Assembly (NCBI GenBank): GCA_038904395.1
Contig: JBCKKC010000002.1
Coordinates: 14,285-78,284 of the forward strand
Direction of reading: 5' to 3'
Source of the DNA: Acidimicrobiia bacterium
GTDB lineage: Bacteria; Actinomycetota; Acidimicrobiia; UBA2766
DNA: 64,000 bases
Position 1 is the stretch's first letter. The number at the start of each line of letters is the position of its first letter. The notes under the pieces were generated by a model. That model saw only the letters and a list, made by a program, of their open reading frames with translations. It had not been told where the DNA came from and searched no databases. Made by a program: the position numbers and the translations under genes. Positions 8-52,864 of the stretch are shown one piece after another.

Positions 8-1963
8 ATGGTAATGCCTACAAATTTCGGGGACAGATACAGAGTTGCGAGGTCGATAGCCCGGGGCGGCATGGCTGAGGTCTTTCTCGCTACCGACACG
101 CGCCTCGACCGGTCCATCGCGATCAAGGTTATGCACGAAGAACTGTCGAGTAACACTGCATTTCTCTCGAGGTTTGAACGTGAAGCAAGAGCTATGGCCG
201 GGCTGAATCACCCCAACATGGTGCAGGTATATGACTACGGAGTCGAGTCCGGTGCGCCTTATATCATTATGGAATTCGTCAAAGGCAAGACCCTGCGCGA
301 CCTGCTGCGCGACCAAGGTATTCCTCAGCCCCAACGCGCCGCTGAAGTTGTCGCCGACGTGGCCGGTGCCCTCCAATTCGCCCACGATCACGGCGTCGTA
401 CATCGTGACGTGAAACCGGCCAACATCATGGTCGACACGGAAGGCATCGTCAAGGTGACCGACTTCGGCATTGCTCAAGCTGGCGATGATGAAGCGCACC
501 TCACCCAGGTTGGCACAGTAGTGGGCACCGCCGCCTACTTCTCACCCGAACAAGCTCAAGGCAACATCGCAGATGCCCGATCAGACGTCTACTCAATGGG
601 CACAGTGTTGTACGAGTTGATCTGCGGAAAACCACCGTTCGAGGGCGAAACATCGTGGGCCATCGCCTACAAGCACGTAAATGAAGCACCCACACTGCCT
701 TCGCAAATACGCCCTGGCATCCCACATCCGCTAGAAGCCGTCGCCATGAGAGCAATGGCCAAAGACCCTGCCATGCGTTATCAATCAGCCGGAGACATGC
801 AGGCTGACCTGTTGCGCTTCAGAAGGGGTGAGGTGCCGCTGGCAACGGCTGCCCTCACACGAGTTGGGGCAGCAGGACTAGCAGGAGCCGCCGTGGCCGC
901 AGCTGGACTTACAGCGGTGTCGACGCCAGTGGGTGGAGCTACCGCCGTTGGCCCCAACGCAACCAAAACAGGCATGCCAGCCGTCACAAGCGGTCGTCGA
1001 CCCCCGTCGGGGCAACGCCCGATGCCTAACAAACGCAAGCGCTGGCCTGCGGTCCTAGGCACAATCGCAGCGCTGATCGCCGTTGGTTTCGGGCTTTTCT
1101 TCCTGGTCAAGACTCTCGCCGGCGGCGGAGGAACTACCGTTCCGGATGTAAGTGGACTCAGCGTCGAGAACGCCACGACGACATTGCAGCAAGCCGGCTT
1201 TCAGGTAACGAGAGATAATCAAGTATCTCAAGATGTCGCCAAAGACTCAGTGATCAGCACCGATCCTGCAGCAGGCGAAAGGGCTCCCGAGCACTCAACT
1301 ATCAAACTCGTCGTTTCAGCAGGCCCGAATGCAATAAAGGTCCCCAATGTAGTGGGCAAGTCACGTTCCGCCGCCGAAGCGATCCTCAAAGATGCCGGAC
1401 TGAAACCGATCGCCGATCTTCAAGAGTCTGATAAACCGGTAAATAATGTCATCGGCCAGGATCCAGACGCCGGAACTGAGGTAGCAGAAGGCGGTACCGT
1501 GACGATAACCATTTCGAGCGGGACAAAGCAAACAACGGTTCCAGACGTAACCGGATTATCTCAAGACGATGCCACCCAAAGCCTCGACAATGCCGGATTT
1601 GGCAACTCAGTAAAAAAGGTTGACTCCGACAAAGACGCAGGAACCGTAATCAGCCAGTCTCCAGGCGCACTTGAGAAAGCCAACCGTGGTGCGACTGTCA
1701 CCCTCACAGTGTCGAGTGGCCCCAAGCAAGTTAACATCCCCAACGTGACCGGCCAGAGCGCTAGCCAGGCTAGCAGCACTCTTGCCGCTGCGGGATTCAA
1801 AGTCTCAAGTCGCAATGTTCCCGCCGTCGGAGGCTGCACCGCTAACACAGTATGTAGCCAACAACCTGCCAGCGGAACAGCATCCAAGGGCAGCACCGTC
1901 ACCATCCTCGTTGGGGTGTCATCAACCACCACGACTACCACGACTACCACGACCGCCCCATAG
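8..1963 (+). CDS. pknB: Ser/Thr protein kinase PknB with transmembrane segment and four PASTA repeats
   Basis: N-terminal Hanks kinase motifs are present (VAIK-like IAIKV, HRDVKPAN, DFGIA, SPEQA). A TM helix (AVLGTIAALIAVGFGLFFLV) follows, then four repeats of the V-P-(D/N)-V-x-G type. The C-terminus is a poly-Thr run. Synteny with trpG and crgA matches mycobacterial pknB. Confidence 0.9.
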   Translation: MVMPTNFGDRYRVARSIARGGMAEVFLATDTRLDRSIAIKVMHEELSSNTAFLSRFEREARAMAGLNHPNMVQVYDYGVESGAPYIIMEFVKGKTLRDLLRDQGIPQPQRAAEVVADVAGALQFAHDHGVVHRDVKPANIMVDTEGIVKVTDFGIAQAGDDEAHLTQVGTVVGTAAYFSPEQAQGNIADARSDVYSMGTVLYELICGKPPFEGETSWAIAYKHVNEAPTLPSQIRPGIPHPLEAVAMRAMAKDPAMRYQSAGDMQADLLRFRRGEVPLATAALTRVGAAGLAGAAVAAAGLTAVSTPVGGATAVGPNATKTGMPAVTSGRRPPSGQRPMPNKRKRWPAVLGTIAALIAVGFGLFFLVKTLAGGGGTTVPDVSGLSVENATTTLQQAGFQVTRDNQVSQDVAKDSVISTDPAAGERAPEHSTIKLVVSAGPNAIKVPNVVGKSRSAAEAILKDAGLKPIADLQESDKPVNNVIGQDPDAGTEVAEGGTVTITISSGTKQTTVPDVTGLSQDDATQSLDNAGFGNSVKKVDSDKDAGTVISQSPGALEKANRGATVTLTVSSGPKQVNIPNVTGQSASQASSTLAAAGFKVSSRNVPAVGGCTANTVCSQQPASGTASKGSTVTILVGVSSTTTTTTTTTTAP

Positions 1964-3177: not shown

Positions 3178-4032
3178 TCAGCCAGCAGGCAACGTTTTAA
3201 TGGCAGTACCGGGCGGTGCATTTGGTTCCTCGTGTTGAGGTGCCTGTCTAGGCAGTCCTACCGAATCAATAAAGGGCCCCGATATCATGCTTGCCTGCAC
3301 GATCAATCGCTCACTACGTGAATATTTCGGGTTGCACGTCGTTAAGGTGATGCGATCATCCTGGGTCACCTTGGTTACTTCTTTCGCAGCTTCAATATCT
3401 TTCTCCCCAATCGGGAATACGTTGGTCACGTCATATACAGTGCGGCCGGCTATTGTCGTGATCACAATTTGCTCGCCCGGCTTAAGCTCGTCAGCCCGAT
3501 TGAATTCCGCTCCGTATGTTACTCTGTGTGCTGATATCACCGAGTTTCCCGGCCCACCTGGGAGGGCCGTCGCCGGCAGGGCACCAGGACCTCGCTGCAA
3601 GTCAAGTCTATCTACGCCGGCAACCACTGTGTTATCCACCCCGATCTTTGGAATCTCGATGCGGGCAATTGGGCCGTGGCTTTGCGAGGCACGCTCCCAT
3701 TCAGCAGCCAGCTGGTCATAAAGTTCTTGGCGTTGGCTGGCATGCAAGGTATTGAGTCGAGTCTTGAACTGCGCCTCAAGCTTCTTTTGCGCGGCAAGAC
3801 TTTCGAATCGTGTCCCCCAGAGCGTATAGACGACAAACAGTAGAAGCGCTGCACCCAGCGACATAAGAGCGTAACCAGCGTAGATGAAAAATCGGCGCCA
3901 CCCTCTAGGCCTGGGTTTGGAGCTACGTTTGGGACTGCCACGTGAGGGTTCTGGCCCCGAGGTTTGAATGTTTCCTCCGGAGAAAACCAACGTTGGTTCA
4001 CCAGTCATCGCGTAGTCCTGGGAAGTTCGCAT
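3178..4032 (-). CDS. Class E-like sortase (transpeptidase)
   Basis: An N-terminal TM helix is followed by sortase signatures: SVISAHRV (catalytic His region), ITLTTCNP (TLxTC catalytic Cys) and a downstream Arg (SERLIVQA). The start is set at an internal Met (4032, or 4008) because the full ORF would overlap crgA. Confidence 0.8.
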   Translation of the reverse strand: MRTSQDYAMTGEPTLVFSGGNIQTSGPEPSRGSPKRSSKPRPRGWRRFFIYAGYALMSLGAALLLFVVYTLWGTRFESLAAQKKLEAQFKTRLNTLHASQRQELYDQLAAEWERASQSHGPIARIEIPKIGVDNTVVAGVDRLDLQRGPGALPATALPGGPGNSVISAHRVTYGAEFNRADELKPGEQIVITTIAGRTVYDVTNVFPIGEKDIEAAKEVTKVTQDDRITLTTCNPKYSRSERLIVQASMISGPFIDSVGLPRQAPQHEEPNAPPGTAIKTLPAG

Positions 4033-4111
4033 ATGGTGTTGCAAAAGGCCAGCCCCCGACGGTTTAATACGCTCAGAGACCAGTATAATGCCTCGCCGGG
4101 CGTAGTGGCCA

Positions 4112-4357
4112 CTAGCGCAACCGCATCGCCAACACGAGACAGAGAAGGATAAGCACGAGACCAGCAAGCAGGTAAGTGTTGTTGGCGCCAGCTGCGGTTC
4201 CTGGCAACAACGAAAGGTAGTTGCCGACCAGGACAACAGCGCCAAGGATACCTAGCCCGAGGACAAGGATCCCATACCACCTTGGGCTGGGAGGCTTATT
4301 CTTCTGGGGTGGCGGCGTATATCTATTGCGTTTCGATTTTGACTCTGGCACGTTCAA
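4112..4357 (-). CDS. crgA: Cell division protein CrgA
   Basis: The 81-aa protein has a basic N-terminus (KSKRNRYTPPP..SPRWY) followed by two TM helices, the typical CrgA pattern. Its position next to the sortase, trpG and pknB is conserved. Confidence 0.8.
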   Translation of the reverse strand: MNVPESKSKRNRYTPPPQKNKPPSPRWYGILVLGLGILGAVVLVGNYLSLLPGTAAGANNTYLLAGLVLILLCLVLAMRLR

Positions 4358-4512
4358 AAGACTAGACGGTATTGCGTCGGTTCACGCGTCTTTTCACAGA
4401 AGTCTCGCCCACAATCGGCCAAGCGCATCCGCTCCGGCCCCCAGAATGGATCCCACATCCTGAGCTGCCCGACCTCACTCCAAACTACCTGCGATGAATT
4501 TCACGTGTGGAA

Positions 4513-4630
4513 TTACCCACAGGTTTGTCCACAGCTGTGGATAACTCTTGGAGTTGTCAACACGTTCCCACACAGCCACTCACAGACGATTTACACAAGC
4601 TGTCCACATGACATCCACCGGTTTTCCACA
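4513..4630. promoter_or_regulatory. Cluster of at least six DnaA-box 9-mers upstream of crgA
   Basis: Two boxes are perfect: TTGTCCACA (4525-4533) and TGTGGATAA (4536-4544, the reverse complement of TTATCCACA). Four boxes have one mismatch: TTACCCACA (4513-4521), TTGTCAACA (4554-4562), CTGTCCACA (4600-4608) and TTTTCCACA (4622-4630). Confidence 0.6.
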
Positions 4631-4696
4631 CCCCAGAGTCCACGGCAAGCGAAAAGAGAGCAGGCTCCAAATAAGATCGTCACCATGCAAGGGCTC

Positions 4697-5002
4697 TTAC
4701 GAAACTGTCTCAGGCGCTTCTACTACCAGCACCATCTCTTCACGACAGTGTTTGGGAGGAGCAAATCCCTCAAAATCATCTTCTTCGTCGTCGGCCACCC
4801 GCGTCAACTTCACCTCTGTCGCGCAAACAATGCACCGAAAACGGAGGTCAAAGTTTTCCACATTCATGGTTTGACCTGAAGGTCCGTCTTCGAATGTTGC
4901 CCCAAGCATTGACAGAGTCACAATGCCGATTTTCCACAGCAAGAAGACAATCGCAATCGCGAGAAAAACTAAGATGTAGGGATGATCGCCAAGCCACTTC
5001 AC
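4697..5002 (-). CDS. Hypothetical small membrane protein with CxxC...HC motif
   Basis: The 101-aa ORF has an N-terminal TM helix (ILVFLAIAIVFLLWKIGIV) and an acidic C-terminal half carrying CIVC and HC. No family recognised. Competing plus-strand ORFs look non-coding. Confidence 0.45.
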   Translation of the reverse strand: MKWLGDHPYILVFLAIAIVFLLWKIGIVTLSMLGATFEDGPSGQTMNVENFDLRFRCIVCATEVKLTRVADDEEDDFEGFAPPKHCREEMVLVVEAPETVS

Positions 5003-5066
5003 GCGATCAGTTTAAACCAACACGTGAAGAATGTCCCCCCGGAACACTCCGTCTTGACAGCGAACC

Positions 5067-6266
5067 TCAGGCGAGGCGCTCGATGATGGTCGCGTTGGCC
5101 ATGCCGCCGCCCTCGCACATGGTCTGTAGGCCAAAGCGGCCTTCGACACGCTCTAGCTCATTGAGCAAAGTGGCCATTAGTCGGGCACCAGAGGCGCCGA
5201 GTGGGTGCCCAACTGCGATAGCGCCACCATTGACGTTCACCTTAGACAAATCGGCTTTGTGTTCTTTTGCCCATGCCAATACAACTGGCGCAAACGCCTC
5301 GTTTACCTCGAAACGATCGATATCGCCCATGGACATCTTGACACTCTTGAGAACCTTGGTCGTGGCCGGAATAGGCGCGCTCAACATTATCACAGGGTCG
5401 ACTCCGGCCAAAGCGAACGCAATAACGCGAGCTCGAGGCCTTAGACCCAGCGATTCGGCCGTCTTGCGCTCCATAATGAGCACAGCAGCAGCGCCATCAG
5501 TGATCTGCGAAGAGTTACCGGCAGTAATCACGCCATCGGGCTGAAAAACAGTCTTGAGAGAGGCCAGCTTCTCGAGCGTGGTATCTACCCGAATCCCCTC
5601 ATCCCGCGTAAGAGTCTCACCACTGGCACCTTCACCAGTTCTAACTTCCACCGGAATAATCTCGTTCTTAAAACGACCCTCGTCAGCGGCAGCCGCGGCA
5701 CGCTTGTGCGATTGAAAGGAGAACTCGTCGACTTCCTGCCGGGAAATCTTCCACTTTTCGGCCACAATTTCGGCTGATATGCCCTGAGGAACTATTCCAC
5801 CGCGCCCATACAGATTGCGCTCTCGATACATCTCCATCATGCGCGCACCAAAGGGTGCCCCAAAACCTTGCTGCATGGTCGAGCCTAACGGCACCCGACT
5901 CATCGACTCGACACCCGCTGCCACGACTATGTCATATGCTCCAGCGATAACTCCTTGTGCCGCAAAATGAATCGACTGCTGAGATGAACCACACTGGCGA
6001 TCGATCGTGGTACCAGGAGTGGTTTCGGGGTAACCAGCCACCAAGGCCGCGTTGCGAGCAATGTTTAGCCCCTGATCACCAGTCTGGCTAACACACCCCA
6101 TGATCACGTCTTCGACGAGAGCTGGGTCAAGATGGTTCCGCTCAACGAGCGCACGTAGGGTCTCGGCAGCGAGGTCTACTGGATGCCAACCTGAGAGTGC
6201 GCCAACGTTTGGCTTGCCCTTGCCTAACGGCGTCCGTACTGCGTCAACGATGACTGCTTCGCGCAT
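5067..6266 (-). CDS. Acetyl-CoA C-acetyltransferase (thiolase II)
   Basis: The protein shows full-length thiolase similarity. Signatures include the active-site Cys region (IDRQCGSSQQS), NEAFA, GHPLGASG and the C-terminal CEGGGMANA. Confidence 0.9.
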   Translation of the reverse strand: MREAVIVDAVRTPLGKGKPNVGALSGWHPVDLAAETLRALVERNHLDPALVEDVIMGCVSQTGDQGLNIARNAALVAGYPETTPGTTIDRQCGSSQQSIHFAAQGVIAGAYDIVVAAGVESMSRVPLGSTMQQGFGAPFGARMMEMYRERNLYGRGGIVPQGISAEIVAEKWKISRQEVDEFSFQSHKRAAAAADEGRFKNEIIPVEVRTGEGASGETLTRDEGIRVDTTLEKLASLKTVFQPDGVITAGNSSQITDGAAAVLIMERKTAESLGLRPRARVIAFALAGVDPVIMLSAPIPATTKVLKSVKMSMGDIDRFEVNEAFAPVVLAWAKEHKADLSKVNVNGGAIAVGHPLGASGARLMATLLNELERVEGRFGLQTMCEGGGMANATIIERLA

Positions 6267-14205: not shown

Positions 14206-16236
14206 TCAAATATCCAAGAATCGGACGTCACTAGCGTTGGCACGAATGAACTCTTTTCTCACTTCAACATCGTCACCCATCAAGGTGGAGAAGATTTCGT
14301 CAGCGATTGCCGCATCATCAATCGTCACTTTTCGCAAAACCCTTGTTTCAGGATTCATAGTTGTCGACCACAGCTCTTCATAGTCCATCTCGCCCAGACC
14401 TTTGTATCGCTGAGCAGAAGGTAACTTCCTGTCAGCATGTTCGCCACGGAGCACCTCAAGCTCACGATCGCTGAAGAGATAGTGGATGTTGCGATCAATT
14501 CGTTGAGCAAACAGTGGCGGCTGGGCAGAATAAACGTAGCCAGCTTCAACAATTTGGGGCATGTAGCGGAAGAAAAATGTGAGTAAAAGTGTGCGGATGT
14601 GGGACCCGTCAACATCAGCATCGGCAAGGGTGATGATCTTGTGGTAGCGCACCTTGGACAAATCGAAGTCTTCGCCAATTCCAGCCCCGATCGCCGAGAT
14701 AAGCGACCGAACTTCGTTGTTGGCGAGGACCTTGTCGAGGCGTGATTTTTCGACGTTGAGAATCTTTCCCCTGATAGGCAAGATTGCCTGAATATCGCGC
14801 ACCCTTGCCTTGACTGCGGAACCACCCGCCGAATTACCCTCAACAATAAAAATTTCGCACTCATCAGCAACTGTCGATGTGCAATCAACCAGTTTACCCG
14901 GCAGCCCTCCGGCGTCCATAAGGCCCTTGCGGCGAGTAAGCTCACGTGCCTTACGGGCAGCTAGGCGACTTTGAGTCGCTAACTTACATTTCTCGATAAT
15001 GAGTTTTGCTTCACCCGGATGTGCTTCAAGCCAGTCCCCCAACAGTGAATTCATTGTGGTCTGGACAAAGCTTTTCATTTCGGTGTTGCCAAGCTTTGTC
15101 TTTGTCTGTCCCTCAAATTGTGGATTGGACAACTTCACGGACAAAATACCTGTCAAACCCTCTCGACAGTCTTCACCGGCAAAGTTCTCATCTTTAGGCT
15201 TCACCAAATTCGCTGCCTGAGAATATCGATTTATCGTGTTAGTCAGGGCCGCTCTGAAGCCCTCTTCATGCGTCCCACCCTCGTGCGTATTAATCGTGTT
15301 GGCGAAACTGAAAACTGACTCTTGATAAGTATGGTTCCACTGAAGCGCTATCTCGAGCTCTGCGATACCAGCACCGTCAAAGTCTTCCCGCTTGCCGGAA
15401 AGATAAATCATTGAAGATATGAGAGGCTCTTTTTTCGCATTTAGATGCTTAACAAAGTCTTGGATACCTCCTTCAAAATAGAAGTCGAAGACAGCTGGGG
15501 CTTCATCGTCAATTGTGGGACGCTCATCGACAAAGCGTAAACGAACGCCTCTGTTGAGGAAAGCAAGCTCACGTATTCGCCTTACCAAAATGTCGGAATC
15601 GTATTTCGTCGTCTCGAAGATTGTGTCATCAGGCCAGAATGTAACAGTCGTGCCGGTCAGATCAGTATCACCGACTCGTTGCAAAGGACCTGTCGAATGG
15701 CCACCATTTGCAAATTCCTGCCTAAACTCTCCACCATCACGAGCAACCTCTACCAGTAACCGTGATGACAAGGCATTGACAACTGAAACTCCCACACCAT
15801 GTAGTCCACCAGACACAGCATAGCTACCGCCACCAAACTTGCCACCCGCATGCAGAATCGTGAGAACTATCTCAACAGCACTGACACCGGGAAATTTCGG
15901 ATGCTCTTCTACAGGAATACCACGACCGTTGTCGCTGACTCGCACTCCACCATCGGCGAGAATCGTGACCTCAATCGTGTCGCAATATCCGGCCAACGCC
16001 TCGTCAATCGCGTTGTCGACGACCTCGTATACCAGGTGATGAAGCCCACGAGGGCCCGTGGATCCGATATACATGCCGGGCCGTTTGCGGACGGCTTCAA
16101 GACCCTCAATAACGTCAATATCGGAAGCTTCATAAAGGGATTTGTCGGGTGACTTTTCCGTGCCTTGTGCCTGCTTCGAGTTAGCCCCATCAGCGGCATC
16201 GGAGTCAGCTTCAGATCTTGTTTGAGAACCCGCCAT
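14206..16236 (-). CDS. gyrB: DNA gyrase subunit B
   Basis: GHKL ATPase, TOPRIM and tail motifs are present: GLEAVRKRPGMYIG, GLHGVG, EGDSAGG-like EGNSAGGS, and PLRGKILNVE-like PIRGKILNVE. The start is placed at the Met-24 ATG (16236). The ORF track start at 16305 is also possible. Confidence 0.93.
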   Translation of the reverse strand: MAGSQTRSEADSDAADGANSKQAQGTEKSPDKSLYEASDIDVIEGLEAVRKRPGMYIGSTGPRGLHHLVYEVVDNAIDEALAGYCDTIEVTILADGGVRVSDNGRGIPVEEHPKFPGVSAVEIVLTILHAGGKFGGGSYAVSGGLHGVGVSVVNALSSRLLVEVARDGGEFRQEFANGGHSTGPLQRVGDTDLTGTTVTFWPDDTIFETTKYDSDILVRRIRELAFLNRGVRLRFVDERPTIDDEAPAVFDFYFEGGIQDFVKHLNAKKEPLISSMIYLSGKREDFDGAGIAELEIALQWNHTYQESVFSFANTINTHEGGTHEEGFRAALTNTINRYSQAANLVKPKDENFAGEDCREGLTGILSVKLSNPQFEGQTKTKLGNTEMKSFVQTTMNSLLGDWLEAHPGEAKLIIEKCKLATQSRLAARKARELTRRKGLMDAGGLPGKLVDCTSTVADECEIFIVEGNSAGGSAVKARVRDIQAILPIRGKILNVEKSRLDKVLANNEVRSLISAIGAGIGEDFDLSKVRYHKIITLADADVDGSHIRTLLLTFFFRYMPQIVEAGYVYSAQPPLFAQRIDRNIHYLFSDRELEVLRGEHADRKLPSAQRYKGLGEMDYEELWSTTMNPETRVLRKVTIDDAAIADEIFSTLMGDDVEVRKEFIRANASDVRFLDI

Positions 16237-16440: not shown

Positions 16441-16449
16441 TGTGGACAA
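16441..16449. promoter_or_regulatory. Isolated perfect DnaA box upstream of gyrB
   Basis: TGTGGACAA is the reverse complement of TTGTCCACA. It lies in the dciA-gyrB intergenic region. Confidence 0.35.
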
Positions 16450-18057: not shown

Positions 18058-19191
18058 CTATACCCGCACAGGCATCAACAAATACTGGTAAGAGTCTGAG
18101 TCCAGCTCACGGATCATTGCAGGCTTGAGAGGATCACTGGTCTCTATGAGAATGTGCTCACCTGAACAAGCTTCAATACCCTCACGCAGGTACGCAGGAT
18201 TGAAAGCTATCGTCATCGGCTCTCCCGAGTAGTCGCCCTCAATTTCCTCATCTGCTTCCCCACTCAATTCTGGATCGACGGCTAACAAGCGAATTTCACC
18301 GTCACTCAATGAGAGTCTGACAGGAGTCGAATCACGAGCGAGTAGAGCTACTCTGCGCAACGCATCCAACAAGACATCTCTTCCAACTTCGAGACGATTC
18401 GCAAAGTGCTCCGGAATTAGCTGGTTGTAGCTGGGGAAACTGCCATCAATGAGCAATGCAGTTATGGTCGTGTCACCAATGCGAAAGGCAATGCGCTTGT
18501 CGTCAATGCCAACACCCACAACAGGGTCAGTTTCATTTGGAGGAATCAATCGGGCCAGTTCCACTAAAGCTTTCGCCGGCAACAGTGCGGAATCGTTCGT
18601 TCCTAGAAACGAGTTAATCCCCATATCACGTAATGCCAAGCGGTAAGAATCGGTGGCAACGAATCGGATCCCGTCCTCTCCTGATGACAAGAGTACGCCG
18701 GTGAGGACAGGCCGCGTGCGATCAGAGGTCGCAGCGATAACCGTTTGATCTATCGCCTCAACTATTGCCCCGGGAACTAGATCAACAAATGGTGATTCCA
18801 CCACTGGAAGAGTTGGGAAATCATCTCGCGAATAGGTCCGCAATGAGAATCGACTCTTCCCAGTGGATATTCGAGCTAGCCCATCGTTATCCACAACGAT
18901 ATCCACAAGGCCAGAAGGCAACGAACGGACGATATCTCCGAACAACCGGTGCAAAACGGTTTCGCCAGGAGCCGACACTTCCGCCGTGAGAGAAGTCTCA
19001 ATAGCCAACTCACCATCGGTTGCACTAAGGATGACCTGGCCATCTGTCGTAGTTCTCAGCAAAACTCCCGATAGCGCCGCAAGAGTAGCTTTAGCTGGAG
19101 CTGCTCTGAATGCGATTGTTAGCTTGTCATTCAGCGTGTCCTTGTCACAACGAAAGGCCAACGCCGCCTCTGAGTGAGTTAAGATATCCAC
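18058..19191 (-). CDS. dnaN: DNA polymerase III beta sliding clamp
   Basis: The 377-aa protein is a three-domain beta clamp ending in YLLMPVRV. It uses a GTG start, and position and length are canonical. Confidence 0.93.
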   Translation of the reverse strand: MDILTHSEAALAFRCDKDTLNDKLTIAFRAAPAKATLAALSGVLLRTTTDGQVILSATDGELAIETSLTAEVSAPGETVLHRLFGDIVRSLPSGLVDIVVDNDGLARISTGKSRFSLRTYSRDDFPTLPVVESPFVDLVPGAIVEAIDQTVIAATSDRTRPVLTGVLLSSGEDGIRFVATDSYRLALRDMGINSFLGTNDSALLPAKALVELARLIPPNETDPVVGVGIDDKRIAFRIGDTTITALLIDGSFPSYNQLIPEHFANRLEVGRDVLLDALRRVALLARDSTPVRLSLSDGEIRLLAVDPELSGEADEEIEGDYSGEPMTIAFNPAYLREGIEACSGEHILIETSDPLKPAMIRELDSDSYQYLLMPVRV

Positions 19192-19339
19192 AGGTTTTCT
19201 CCCCTACTGATTTTTGTTTATATATAACTGGTGGTGGTAGTGGGGCCTGTTGATATGTGGATAACTTGCTGCCGTGCTGGCCCGGCCCCATTTATGATCT
19301 CTAAGATGTTCGCGCAGGCTGTGGACGAGTTGTGGACAC
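19184..19339. promoter_or_regulatory. Candidate oriC core in the dnaA-dnaN spacer
   Basis: Four DnaA boxes are present: ATATCCACA (19184-19192, over the dnaN GTG), TGTGGATAA (19256-19264, perfect), TGTGGACGA (19320-19328) and TGTGGACAC (19331-19339). An AT-rich stretch, ATTTTTGTTTATATATAA (19210-19227, 17 of 18 A/T), could be the unwinding element. Confidence 0.6.
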
Positions 19340-19346
19340 ATTGTGA

Positions 19347-20810
19347 CTAACCCAACTTGATCGTGTTTGCTAGTTCGTTGACCTGTTGAAGAAGCTGCCT
19401 ACGCTCGTGCATAAGTTGTTCAACCTTTCGTTGTGCGTGTAAAACGGTGGTGTGGTCGCGACCGCCAAAAATTTCACCGATACGAGGCAGCGACAGTTCC
19501 GTCAGCTCTCTGTGTAGGTACATAGCCACCTGCCGAGCATTGACGAGGGGGCGACGACGACTTGGGCCGAGTATGTCTTCAATCGAGATTTTGTAGTAGT
19601 CAGATGTCTCGTGCAGTATCAATTCCGATGTCACCTGCCGACGCCCGGCGTCACCAATGCCTGCGAGCAGATCTTCTGCCCGGCTAAGTGAAATTGGAAC
19701 GCCTTCCAACTTCGCGTAGGCAGCGATTCTGTTCAGAGCTCCCTCGAGAGCCCGAATGTTGTCAGAAATTCGAGTGGCGATGAATTCGATCACCTCGCCT
19801 GGTACAGACAAGAGCGATCTTTCCGCCTTATTTCGCAAGATTGCGATCCTCGTTTCGAGATCAGGTGGTTGGACATCTGTCATAAGGCCCATCTCAAAGC
19901 GAGAACGCAAGCGGTCCTCGAGAGCGGAAATTTCTTTTGGTGGGCGATCCGAAGCGATCACAATTTGGCGATTTGATTGGTGCAAACTGTTGAATGTGTG
20001 GAAAAACTCATTCTGAGTCTCAATCTTCCCGGCCAGAAACTGAATGTCGTCAATAAGTAAAATATCGGTGGCACGATACCGATCACGAAACGCAGTACGC
20101 CGATCAGCTCGAATCATTTCGATGAACTCGTTGGTGAACTGCTCGCTTGACGTATAGGTGGCACGCAGGTTAGATGTCGTCCATATATAGTTGACGATTG
20201 CATGCAGCATGTGGGTCTTGCCAAGACCCGTGCCGCCCCAGATAAAGAGGGGGTTATATCCGGTAGCTGGGCTCTCAGCTACAGCCAATGCTGCGGCGTG
20301 AGCGAATCGATTTGATTCACCAATGATGAAGTTATCGAAGGTATTCGTTGGGACAACCTTGGCTGCATTGCGACTATTCGGCGTGGCGCCGGTAGAAAGG
20401 GATTGTTGCATGTCTTGCTGTGAGGTGTTTAGTGTCGAGTTGTCCTTTTCGTGGTGTGCTGAGGCAGTGTTTGCAAACCCAAGTTGGTCAAGCGGTCCAG
20501 CATTGGGTCCTATTGGGTCCTCAGTTGGATCTGGCTGGGCCAAATCGCGCTCAGGAGTAGTGACAACTAACGAGAAGCTGAGTTGTCGTCCGGCAGCGTC
20601 TGAGATGGCAGAACCAACGTGTGGCCGGTAGCGACTTTCGATGCTTTGCTTGAACAAGTCCGCTGGGACAGAGAGAGCTAGATTGTCATCATTGATGTCC
20701 AAGGGTTCAACAGCAGAAAACCATGCCCTCCATGCTGGATCTCCGAGCTCAAGTCGGAGGGAATCTGATGCAGCATCCCAAACTGATCTTGCTGCCGCTG
20801 AGTCAACCAC
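19347..20810 (-). CDS. dnaA: Chromosomal replication initiator DnaA
   Basis: The AAA+ domain carries Walker A GGTGLGKTHML, Walker B LLIDDIQF and sensor motifs. The C-terminal domain IV HTH contains DHTTVLHA. Confidence 0.95.
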   Translation of the reverse strand: MVDSAAARSVWDAASDSLRLELGDPAWRAWFSAVEPLDINDDNLALSVPADLFKQSIESRYRPHVGSAISDAAGRQLSFSLVVTTPERDLAQPDPTEDPIGPNAGPLDQLGFANTASAHHEKDNSTLNTSQQDMQQSLSTGATPNSRNAAKVVPTNTFDNFIIGESNRFAHAAALAVAESPATGYNPLFIWGGTGLGKTHMLHAIVNYIWTTSNLRATYTSSEQFTNEFIEMIRADRRTAFRDRYRATDILLIDDIQFLAGKIETQNEFFHTFNSLHQSNRQIVIASDRPPKEISALEDRLRSRFEMGLMTDVQPPDLETRIAILRNKAERSLLSVPGEVIEFIATRISDNIRALEGALNRIAAYAKLEGVPISLSRAEDLLAGIGDAGRRQVTSELILHETSDYYKISIEDILGPSRRRPLVNARQVAMYLHRELTELSLPRIGEIFGGRDHTTVLHAQRKVEQLMHERRQLLQQVNELANTIKLG

Positions 20811-20872: not shown

Positions 20873-21108
20873 TTATCCACAGCTGTGGATAGCCTAGTGA
20901 CTCTGGGTTGAGAACACCTAGCCGGTAGCCGAGGATATCGCAAGTTACAGTGCCGAGTTGGATCAAAATAGCAGGATAGGCCACATCTGGCAATAGGCGG
21001 CCGGACAAATCCGTCCCCTGGTTGGTGAATCTGCTGCTAGTCGATGGTGCGGTCGAGGATGCACAGCTAAATTTCATAAAGGGATACGCTGTGAAGGCCT
21101 GTGGATAA
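20873..21108. promoter_or_regulatory. DnaA boxes in the rpmH-dnaA divergent promoter region
   Basis: A convergent box pair, TTATCCACAGCTGTGGATAG, spans 20873-20892. A perfect TGTGGATAA lies at 21100-21108. Confidence 0.55.
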
Positions 21109-52831: not shown

Positions 52832-52864
52832 CCTGTGGACAACCTGTGTAGATCCTGTGGATTT
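52832..52864. promoter_or_regulatory. Three CCTGTGKA motifs in 11-bp phase upstream of dnaB, including one perfect DnaA box
   Basis: The motifs are CCTGTGGA (52832), CCTGTGTA (52843) and CCTGTGGA (52854). TGTGGACAA at 52834-52842 is the reverse complement of TTGTCCACA. The array lies 66-98 bp upstream of the dnaB start. Confidence 0.4.

Follow-up and report, generated by a model that had tools for sequence, protein, structure and literature searches.

The 64,000-nucleotide stretch of contig JBCKKC010000002.1 from an Acidimicrobiia bacterium that we analyzed (positions 14,285 to 78,284 of the forward strand; hereafter, the window) contains a dense cluster of DnaA-binding sites (DnaA boxes) next to the cell-division gene crgA. 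This cluster is real, highly non-random and deeply conserved, and it is an already known sort of element. Its sequence and genomic position suggest that it is probably the Acidimicrobiia orthologue of an actinobacterial crgA-flanking DnaA-binding site, which would act on DnaA itself and would be neither a replication origin nor primarily an operator of crgA. Most likely, the site exerts its influence on DnaA and the cell cycle, rather than serving as a second origin or as a switch for crgA expression.

DnaA boxes and the conserved 51-bp module

A preliminary description of this region had reported, between positions 4513 and 4630, six 9-mers with at most one mismatch to TTGTCCACA/TTATCCACA, two of them perfect, and all six were found there. 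While the boxes lie where they had been placed, the conserved element of which they are a part begins at position 4496, 17 bp to the left of the boundary that had been drawn. The features of the cluster are as follows.

4496-4546, plus strand: DnaA-box module (left palindrome and three-box core), located with an nhmmer profile built from relatives
4496-4514, no strand assigned: left palindrome, GAATTTCAC and GTGTGGAATT, two weak box-like half-sites facing each other
4513-4521, plus strand: box a, TTACCCACA, one mismatch, in tandem with box b across a 3-bp spacer
4525-4533, plus strand: box b, TTGTCCACA, a perfect match to the actinobacterial consensus
4536-4544, minus strand: box c, TTATCCACA, perfect, facing box b across a 2-bp spacer
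4554-4562, plus strand: extra box TTGTCAACA, at most one mismatch
4564-4572, plus strand: extra box GTTCCCACA, two mismatches
4600-4608, plus strand: extra box CTGTCCACA, at most one mismatch
4622-4630, plus strand: extra box TTTTCCACA, at most one mismatch

An inverted-repeat search showed that boxes b and c together form a 10+10 palindrome (TTGTCCACAG and CTGTGGATAA). Since TTGTCCACA is the high-affinity DnaA box and the consensus sequence for both Mycobacterium tuberculosis and Streptomyces coelicolor (PMC4285127), it can safely be inferred that boxes b and c are bound by DnaA.

Across the 64 kb of the window, TTGTCCACA was found with at most one mismatch 29 times, as compared to 15.0 +/- 3.6 times in shuffled sequences. 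The densest 150-bp segment ends at position 4630 and holds six boxes when both forms of the consensus are counted; the next densest, with three, is the spacer between dnaA and dnaN. When the 64 kb were randomized 200 times with a Markov-1 model, no 118-bp stretch held more than three boxes, and not one of 5000 randomizations of the crgA-side spacer contained more than three. The box density thus surpasses that of shuffled DNA (six boxes versus a maximum of three). The cluster also contains more boxes than either of the spacers that flank dnaA, as had been noted: six, versus three to four in the dnaA-dnaN spacer and three in the rpmH-dnaA spacer.

An nhmmer profile of the module was constructed from 58 Acidimicrobiia sequences, with the window left out of the build. 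It matched the window at positions 4496 to 4546 on the plus strand with an E-value of 1.6e-11 (42.4 bits; model positions 4-55), the only strong match in the 64 kb. The consensus of these 58 sequences spans 51 bp and reads GAATssCA-n4-TGTrATTcCCCACAGag-TTnTCCACA-GnC-TGTGGAnAAc. Its left part, the palindrome with the family consensus GAATssCA-n4-TGTrATTC, corresponds to the palindrome AATCACAnnnnTGTGATT of M. tuberculosis, and an equivalent of box a (TTCCCCACA or TTACCCACA) is kept in the relatives. No sequence conservation was detected to the right of box c in these relatives; the extra boxes between 4554 and 4630, all of which point in the same direction, are specific to the lineage of the window. 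Its Acidimicrobiia relatives carry one to four boxes each, so that the window tops the range. Hence, the cluster consists of the right-hand part of a conserved module and of three to four lineage-specific extra boxes.

Conservation across Actinobacteria and the mycobacterial site

For the comparison with other genomes, we used two sets of 80 loci each. The Acidimicrobiia set was obtained by scanning species-representative genomes with a CrgA alignment, and nearly all of its members are metagenome-assembled genomes labelled Acidimicrobiia or Actinomycetota; the Actinomycetes set stems from a metagenome scan with an alignment of Streptomyces and Mycobacterium CrgA proteins. The CrgA proteins of the latter set are 36-93% identical to an S. 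coelicolor-like query.

About 150 loci have the module next to crgA; they belong to Acidimicrobiia, to Streptomyces-like and other Actinomycetes and to Mycobacterium, and nearly all of them carry it downstream of the gene. In about 135 of these 150 relatives, the cluster is positioned between the 3' ends of convergent genes. Within the 300 bp that follow crgA, the box density is 5.0 per kb in the Acidimicrobiia and 11.0 per kb in the Actinomycetes, as compared to 0.13 and 0.36 per kb, respectively, in the 300 bp upstream, and to 0.07 and 0.25 per kb over the remainder of these loci. At least one box was present within these 300 bp in 65 of 78 Acidimicrobiia loci and in all 70 Actinomycetes loci with enough downstream sequence; 46 of these 70 carry three or more boxes there. 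The Streptomyces-like loci, in which crgA and a rhomboid gene converge, possess between these genes the sequence TTACCCACAgcgTTATCCACAggTGGGGGAAA followed by further boxes, and their spacer carries four to six boxes. Strong expansions of the cluster are present in two metagenomic Actinomycetes loci (L136, 1560-2180; L150, 3260-3600), with 9-12 boxes in the approximately 450 bp that follow crgA.

It is not only the number of boxes that is conserved, but also their arrangement. A facing pair of boxes is present in 62 of 82 Acidimicrobiia loci and is preceded, at a distance of 3 bp, by a third, weaker box in tandem. The two facing boxes are 2 bp apart in the window; in the Acidimicrobiia their distance is 3 bp at 58 of the 62 loci, and in most Actinomycetes loci it is 1-3 bp. 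A packed three-box array that includes a facing pair was detected at 65 of the 80 Acidimicrobiia loci and at 69 of 71 loci from Actinomycetes, but in none of 139 control regions, and a divergent arrangement of boxes was never seen in the Acidimicrobiia and Actinomycetes loci scanned for such arrays. Two short soil contigs encoding CrgA homologues carry a nearly identical core downstream of crgA, ATTCCCCACAGACTTGTCCACAGGCTGTGGACAAC as compared to ATTACCCACAGGTTTGTCCACAGCTGTGGATAAC in the window.

The genes next to the module are less constant. Wherever the flanks of an Acidimicrobiia locus could be matched, the genes run pknB(+), pabA(-), crgA(+), the boxes, orf101(-) and a thiolase gene(-). 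The downstream neighbor is thus a convergent orf101 in the Acidimicrobiia. Among the Actinomycetes, 55 loci have a convergent rhomboid gene in this place, and 13 loci of the mycobacterial type, two Mycobacterium reference loci included, have a co-directional Rv0010c-like gene(+). Collectively, the module keeps the order and orientation of its boxes and their 1-3 bp spacing across distant lineages while the flanking genes change, which argues for an ancient function that resides in the DNA-DnaA complex itself.

The preliminary description knew of no such arrangement for crgA. However, it has been described in mycobacteria under the locus name Rv0011c, which is crgA (Hicks et al., 2020, PLoS Pathog; PMC7738170). 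IDAP-seq with purified M. tuberculosis DnaA places the spacer between Rv0010c and Rv0011c among the five most strongly enriched regions; binding was confirmed by electrophoretic mobility shift assays, DnaA alone binds a 110-141 bp spacer fragment, and the homologous region of M. smegmatis forms a chromatin immunoprecipitation sequencing peak for myc-tagged DnaA (PMC7738170). Within this site, two box-like sequences make up a small palindrome that is hit by single nucleotide polymorphisms (SNPs) of clinical isolates and by 22 independent IS6110 insertions, the latter located at the GAATC of AATCACAnnnnTGTGATT (PMC7738170). Engineered SNPs yield longer cells with a higher isoniazid tolerance, as do dnaA mutations, while the expression of Rv0010c and Rv0011c is unchanged in M. 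tuberculosis dnaA mutants (PMC7738170). Because mutations at the site raise isoniazid tolerance, its function carries clinical weight. Hicks et al. proposed that it regulates DnaA by titration or by nucleotide exchange, and they saw no obvious counterpart in other bacteria (PMC7738170); the conservation across distant actinobacterial lineages reported here goes beyond their report.

The window possesses the properties that characterize this crgA-flanking site: a position by crgA towards gyrA and oriC, a box cluster with a palindrome of half-sites, and sequence homology across lineages. As in M. tuberculosis, the cluster occupies the oriC-proximal flank of crgA, within the synteny group pknB-pabA-crgA...gyrA-gyrB-dnaN-dnaA and at 12-15 kb from oriC, and it has the same orientation and a related sequence, in which a CCCCAC element and a perfect TGTGGATAA come after the palindrome of box-like half-sites. 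In an M. tuberculosis-type contig and in Mycobacterium sp. DL592, caATCACAcgcaTGTGATTCatCCCCACtgttgatagcgtcTGTGGATAAC is present downstream of crgA in the place and orientation seen in the module. The CrgA protein of the former contig is 99% identical to M. tuberculosis CrgA. The two sites differ in that the middle box is perfect in the window but degenerate in M. tuberculosis, in the three to four boxes that the window adds, in the inversion of crgA in the window, which places the site 5' of this gene, and in the neighboring gene, which is orf101 rather than an Rv0010c-like bPH_6 gene. The Acidimicrobiia profile matches the crgA flank of Streptomyces-like loci at about 1e-7.

Mode of action and alternative readings

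We envision that domain IV of DnaA would bind a fixed array composed of the weak palindrome and of three tightly spaced boxes, two of them face to face, and that the three to four extra boxes would continue this array in the genome studied here. The bound DNA would act on the availability or the nucleotide state of DnaA and, through the state of DnaA, couple replication to growth and division. Of the functions considered in the preliminary description, a locus resembling datA or the DnaA-reactivating sequences (DARS) is best supported, because the cluster is a homologue of the mycobacterial Rv0010c-Rv0011c DnaA-binding site; titration or reactivation would be its presumed mechanism. The DARS layout (see below), together with the hypomorph-like behavior of the mycobacterial site mutants, leads us to lean towards a DARS-like, activity-supporting role. 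By analogy, a head-to-head DnaA assembly that supports DnaA activity may be favored, at slightly less than even odds, and a sink or inactivator of the datA or D78 type is held to be less probable.

That the boxes form a passive titration sink, or a site of datA-like inactivation, is possible but on balance doubtful. Positioned near oriC, they would be duplicated soon after initiation and would then soak up DnaA, or promote the hydrolysis of DnaA-ATP, and thereby block re-initiation. Two perfect and four near-perfect boxes at a distance of 15 kb from oriC are consistent with this role, as are the up to 12 boxes present in some lineages; datA of Escherichia coli, the DnaA-box clusters of Bacillus subtilis and D78 of Streptomyces are precedents among those cited in PMC3479198, and titration is one of the options named by Hicks et al. 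(PMC7738170). A sink, however, needs number and affinity of boxes and not a strictly kept orientation and a spacing of 1-3 bp, features that point to a specific DnaA-DnaA complex rather than to a simple sink. Moreover, M. tuberculosis site mutants resemble hypomorphic dnaA alleles and do not display the over-initiation expected from the loss of a sink (PMC7738170).

DnaA serves as a transcription factor in model bacteria (PMC7738170), and it might accordingly control crgA, thus linking initiation to division as the preliminary description had suggested, or control a neighboring gene. The relevant features in the window are the following.

4112-4351, minus strand: crgA (Pfam CrgA, 1.5e-9); the mechanically called open reading frame (ORF) reaches TTG 4357
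4359-4364, minus strand: -10-like element TAGTCT, 7 nt before the crgA start codon GTG 4351
4697-5002, minus strand: orf101, a small conserved gene with its 3' end towards the cluster

The Pfam match bears out the assignment of this gene as crgA, although its product is divergent, with the best public homologues being about 52-61% identical. Alignments with homologues begin at residue 3 and support GTG 4351, not TTG 4357, as the start codon. The cluster is therefore indeed located 5' of crgA, but at a distance of 162-279 bp instead of the 156-273 bp originally given. This location, and the position of the mycobacterial cluster upstream of Rv0010c, would suit a transcriptional role for DnaA, yet we consider such a role unlikely. 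The boxes are found downstream of crgA in 80 Acidimicrobiia and about 70 other loci, and the predominance of 3'-3' spacers among these relatives means that promoter control cannot be the conserved function; an overlap of boxes with a promoter is not conserved. In addition, crgA has its own -10-like element more than 130 bp away from the module, and the levels of Rv0010c and Rv0011c do not change in M. tuberculosis dnaA mutants (PMC7738170).

The upstream position of the cluster in the window is a by-product of a local inversion. In all 80 Acidimicrobiia relatives crgA is divergent from pabA, and the window is the only locus compared in which it is inverted. The sequence TAnnnT, followed after 7-8 nt by the start codon, precedes crgA in most relatives that we inspected (e.g., L003, L010, L013, L054 and L078). 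From this pattern, TAGTCT is probably the gene's own leaderless-type promoter, which would have moved along with the inverted gene. A search for inverted repeats flanking crgA that might represent a scar of the inversion yielded only weak, unconvincing matches of 10-19 nt. As judged by tblastn (26-53% identity), most of the 80 Acidimicrobiia relatives carry orf101 in the same position and on the same strand, beside the thiolase gene; the orf101 product belongs to no Pfam family, has a hydrophobic segment near its N-terminus and contains a CxxC...HC pattern. On the plus strand, the spacer is crossed by two ORFs (4505-4879 and 4548-4874) that run antisense to orf101; both were treated as spurious, the former being without a Pfam family. 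Separately, 15 stretches of a 1378-residue protein (P0004) match the 81-residue CrgA query (E = 2e-25), which points to a repetitive membrane protein resembling CrgA or else to an artefact of hydrophobic repeats.

The conserved ligand of the left palindrome could be a protein other than DnaA, such as a HigA2-like helix-turn-helix protein or MtrA. As DnaA boxes, the left half-sites are poor. In M. tuberculosis, micromolar HigA2 was reported to bind this palindrome by Rv0010c in vitro, and a higA2 mutant shows increased expression of Rv0010c (PMC11205783). However, DnaA alone binds the mycobacterial spacer fragment, and mutations in the palindrome phenocopy dnaA mutants (PMC7738170). HigA2, moreover, is a component of a toxin-antitoxin system, and such systems are not known to be conserved across the phylum, whereas the palindrome is conserved. 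We judge both HigA2 and MtrA to be very unlikely as the conserved ligand. In the M. tuberculosis-type locus L089, the HigA2 site is the palindrome at 4354-4375, upstream of Rv0010c, and HigA2 could compete with DnaA in M. tuberculosis.

Both palindromes of the module fold well as RNA (z-scores of -2.3 to -4.6), and the module is positioned between convergent genes in most lineages, as would be expected if it encoded RNA hairpins, for instance a bidirectional intrinsic terminator. This reading is highly improbable. In the alignment of 58 sequences, covariation amounts to 0.096, as compared to 0.094 in shuffled alignments, a value reached by 182 of 500 shuffles, and the sole stem position that varies freely is unpaired in 35 of the 58 sequences. 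What is conserved is the sequence of the DnaA boxes and not their pairing, and neither box a nor the boxes between 4554 and 4630 are palindromic. A scan for terminators and promoters found no site and no T-run at the module, and a scan of positions 3900-5300 against Rfam (E <= 1) gave no match, so a terminator or structured RNA was rejected.

The idea of a second or cryptic replication origin can be put aside almost entirely. By gene content and order, the window is an actinobacterial origin region of the Acidimicrobiia type, read in reverse, with the following landmarks.

19192-19346, no strand assigned: oriC, the 155-bp dnaA-dnaN spacer with three to four boxes and an AT-rich stretch (40-bp GC content of 0.30)
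19347-20810, minus strand: dnaA
11692-16305, minus strand: gyrB and gyrA; dnaN and recF lie between dnaA and gyrB
20873-20892, no strand assigned: head-to-head box pair TTATCCACAgcTGTGGATAG in the upstream region of dnaA, with the 2-bp spacing of boxes b and c

The AT-rich dnaA-dnaN spacer, together with the minimum of the cumulative GC skew at 18-20 kb, places the origin there, about 14.7 kb away from the crgA-side cluster. While the latter contains more DnaA boxes than oriC, it lacks an AT-rich unwinding element, since the 40-bp GC content is at least 0.45 throughout its spacer, as compared to 0.30 in the dnaA-dnaN spacer. Between 4 and 19 kb the GC skew is negative throughout and does not switch until dnaA-dnaN is reached, the genes from 2 to 21 kb share one orientation and point away from dnaA, and the homologous mycobacterial site is not an origin. 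The preliminary description had already noted the missing unwinding element and spoken against a second origin, and on both counts we concur.

Beyond gyrA, the gene order continues with a DUF3566 gene, argS, a rhomboid gene, the thiolase gene and the 101-codon orf101; the 339-bp spacer follows and then crgA(-), a sortase gene, pabA/trpG and pknB(+). PknB carries at its C-terminus, after PASTA-type repeats, a run of ten threonines (...SSTTTTTTTTTTAP; window 1919-1960). The head-to-head pair at 20873-20892 is a weak second match of the Acidimicrobiia module profile (E = 0.0036) and is probably a site of dnaA autoregulation. Two further boxes, at 18887 and 18899, fall within the coding sequence near the 5' end of the dnaN ORF, so that either oriC may reach into this gene or its start may have been mis-set. 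Perfect TTGTCCACA boxes that stand alone are located at 16441-16449, just upstream of gyrB, and at 52834-52842.

Comparison with DARS, datA and other DnaA-box clusters

At DARS elements, an oppositely oriented, i.e., facing, pair of boxes drives the release of ADP from DnaA (PMC6868365). As read from the E. coli K-12 genome, the core of DARS1 is TTATCCACT-5-TGTGGATAA-3-TGTGTATTA, where the numbers give the spacers in bp and one box faces two. The reverse-complemented core of the window reads TTATCCACA-2-TGTGGACAA-3-TGTGGGTAA. On its plus strand, the window thus has two boxes facing one, with spacers of 3 and 2 bp, and on the other strand this becomes the DARS1 layout. DARS1 and DARS2 and the module therefore share three close-packed boxes, two of which face each other, with the weaker third box in tandem 3 bp away, as well as a non-origin, intergenic location. 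They differ in the left palindrome, which is an addition of the module, and in the regulatory regions for IHF or Fis, which are not known for the module. The resemblance to DARS concerns how the module may work by analogy, and not membership in this class of elements.

Several observations weigh against the proposal that the cluster is an actinobacterial DnaA-regulating site with a DARS-like mode of action. The facing boxes are separated by 5 bp in DARS, as compared to 1-3 bp in the actinobacterial module (2 bp in its copy in the window). In E. coli DnaA, Gln208 takes part in the head-to-head AAA+ contact and is needed for DARS-dependent ADP release; it aligns with an Asn in the DnaA protein of the window, a different residue with a similar side chain. 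The extra boxes of the window and the 9-12 boxes of the two expanded Actinomycetes loci are as compatible with a sink as with a catalytic core. The data on DnaA binding and on mutant phenotypes come from M. tuberculosis and M. smegmatis and were obtained by others, and the Acidimicrobiia profile matches the Mycobacterium site weakly (E = 0.4), albeit in the right place and on the right strand. Finally, the initiation rate is unchanged in dnaA mutants according to Hicks et al. (PMC7738170), which makes the link to the control of initiation an indirect one. In the same DnaA alignment, E. coli Val211 and Leu214 each correspond to Ile in the window protein (encoded at 19347-20810).

With these points in mind, we put forward tentatively, and by analogy, that the module might be the actinobacterial counterpart of DARS, at which DnaA molecules would contact each other face to face and swap ADP for ATP. 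If true, it would be the first element beyond the Proteobacteria that recharges DnaA, its position at 12-30 kb from oriC would let its dosage track initiation, and it would explain why clinical M. tuberculosis mutations at the site mimic weak dnaA alleles. What our analysis adds to the mycobacterial work is the conservation in the sampled Actinobacteria, a defined 51-bp architecture and a testable analogy to DARS: the 51-bp consensus provides a precise target for mutation, and the likeness to DARS makes the distinction between titration and nucleotide exchange amenable to biochemical tests.

As a non-origin cluster of several putative high-affinity boxes near oriC, the site in the window can also be compared to datA-type loci. 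It shares with E. coli datA, with the B. subtilis clusters and with D78 of S. coelicolor (considered along with H69 and H24) a location that is proximal to oriC, outside of promoters and not itself an origin. The Streptomyces cluster between crgA and the rhomboid gene may be identical with H69 of Smulczyk-Krawczyszyn et al. (2006). These loci differ from the module in that they act negatively, through titration or the hydrolysis of DnaA-ATP, and datA, in addition, depends on a binding site for IHF. In contrast to all of them, the actinobacterial module has a tightly conserved orientation and spacing of its boxes, and the phenotype of the mycobacterial mutants points in the opposite direction.

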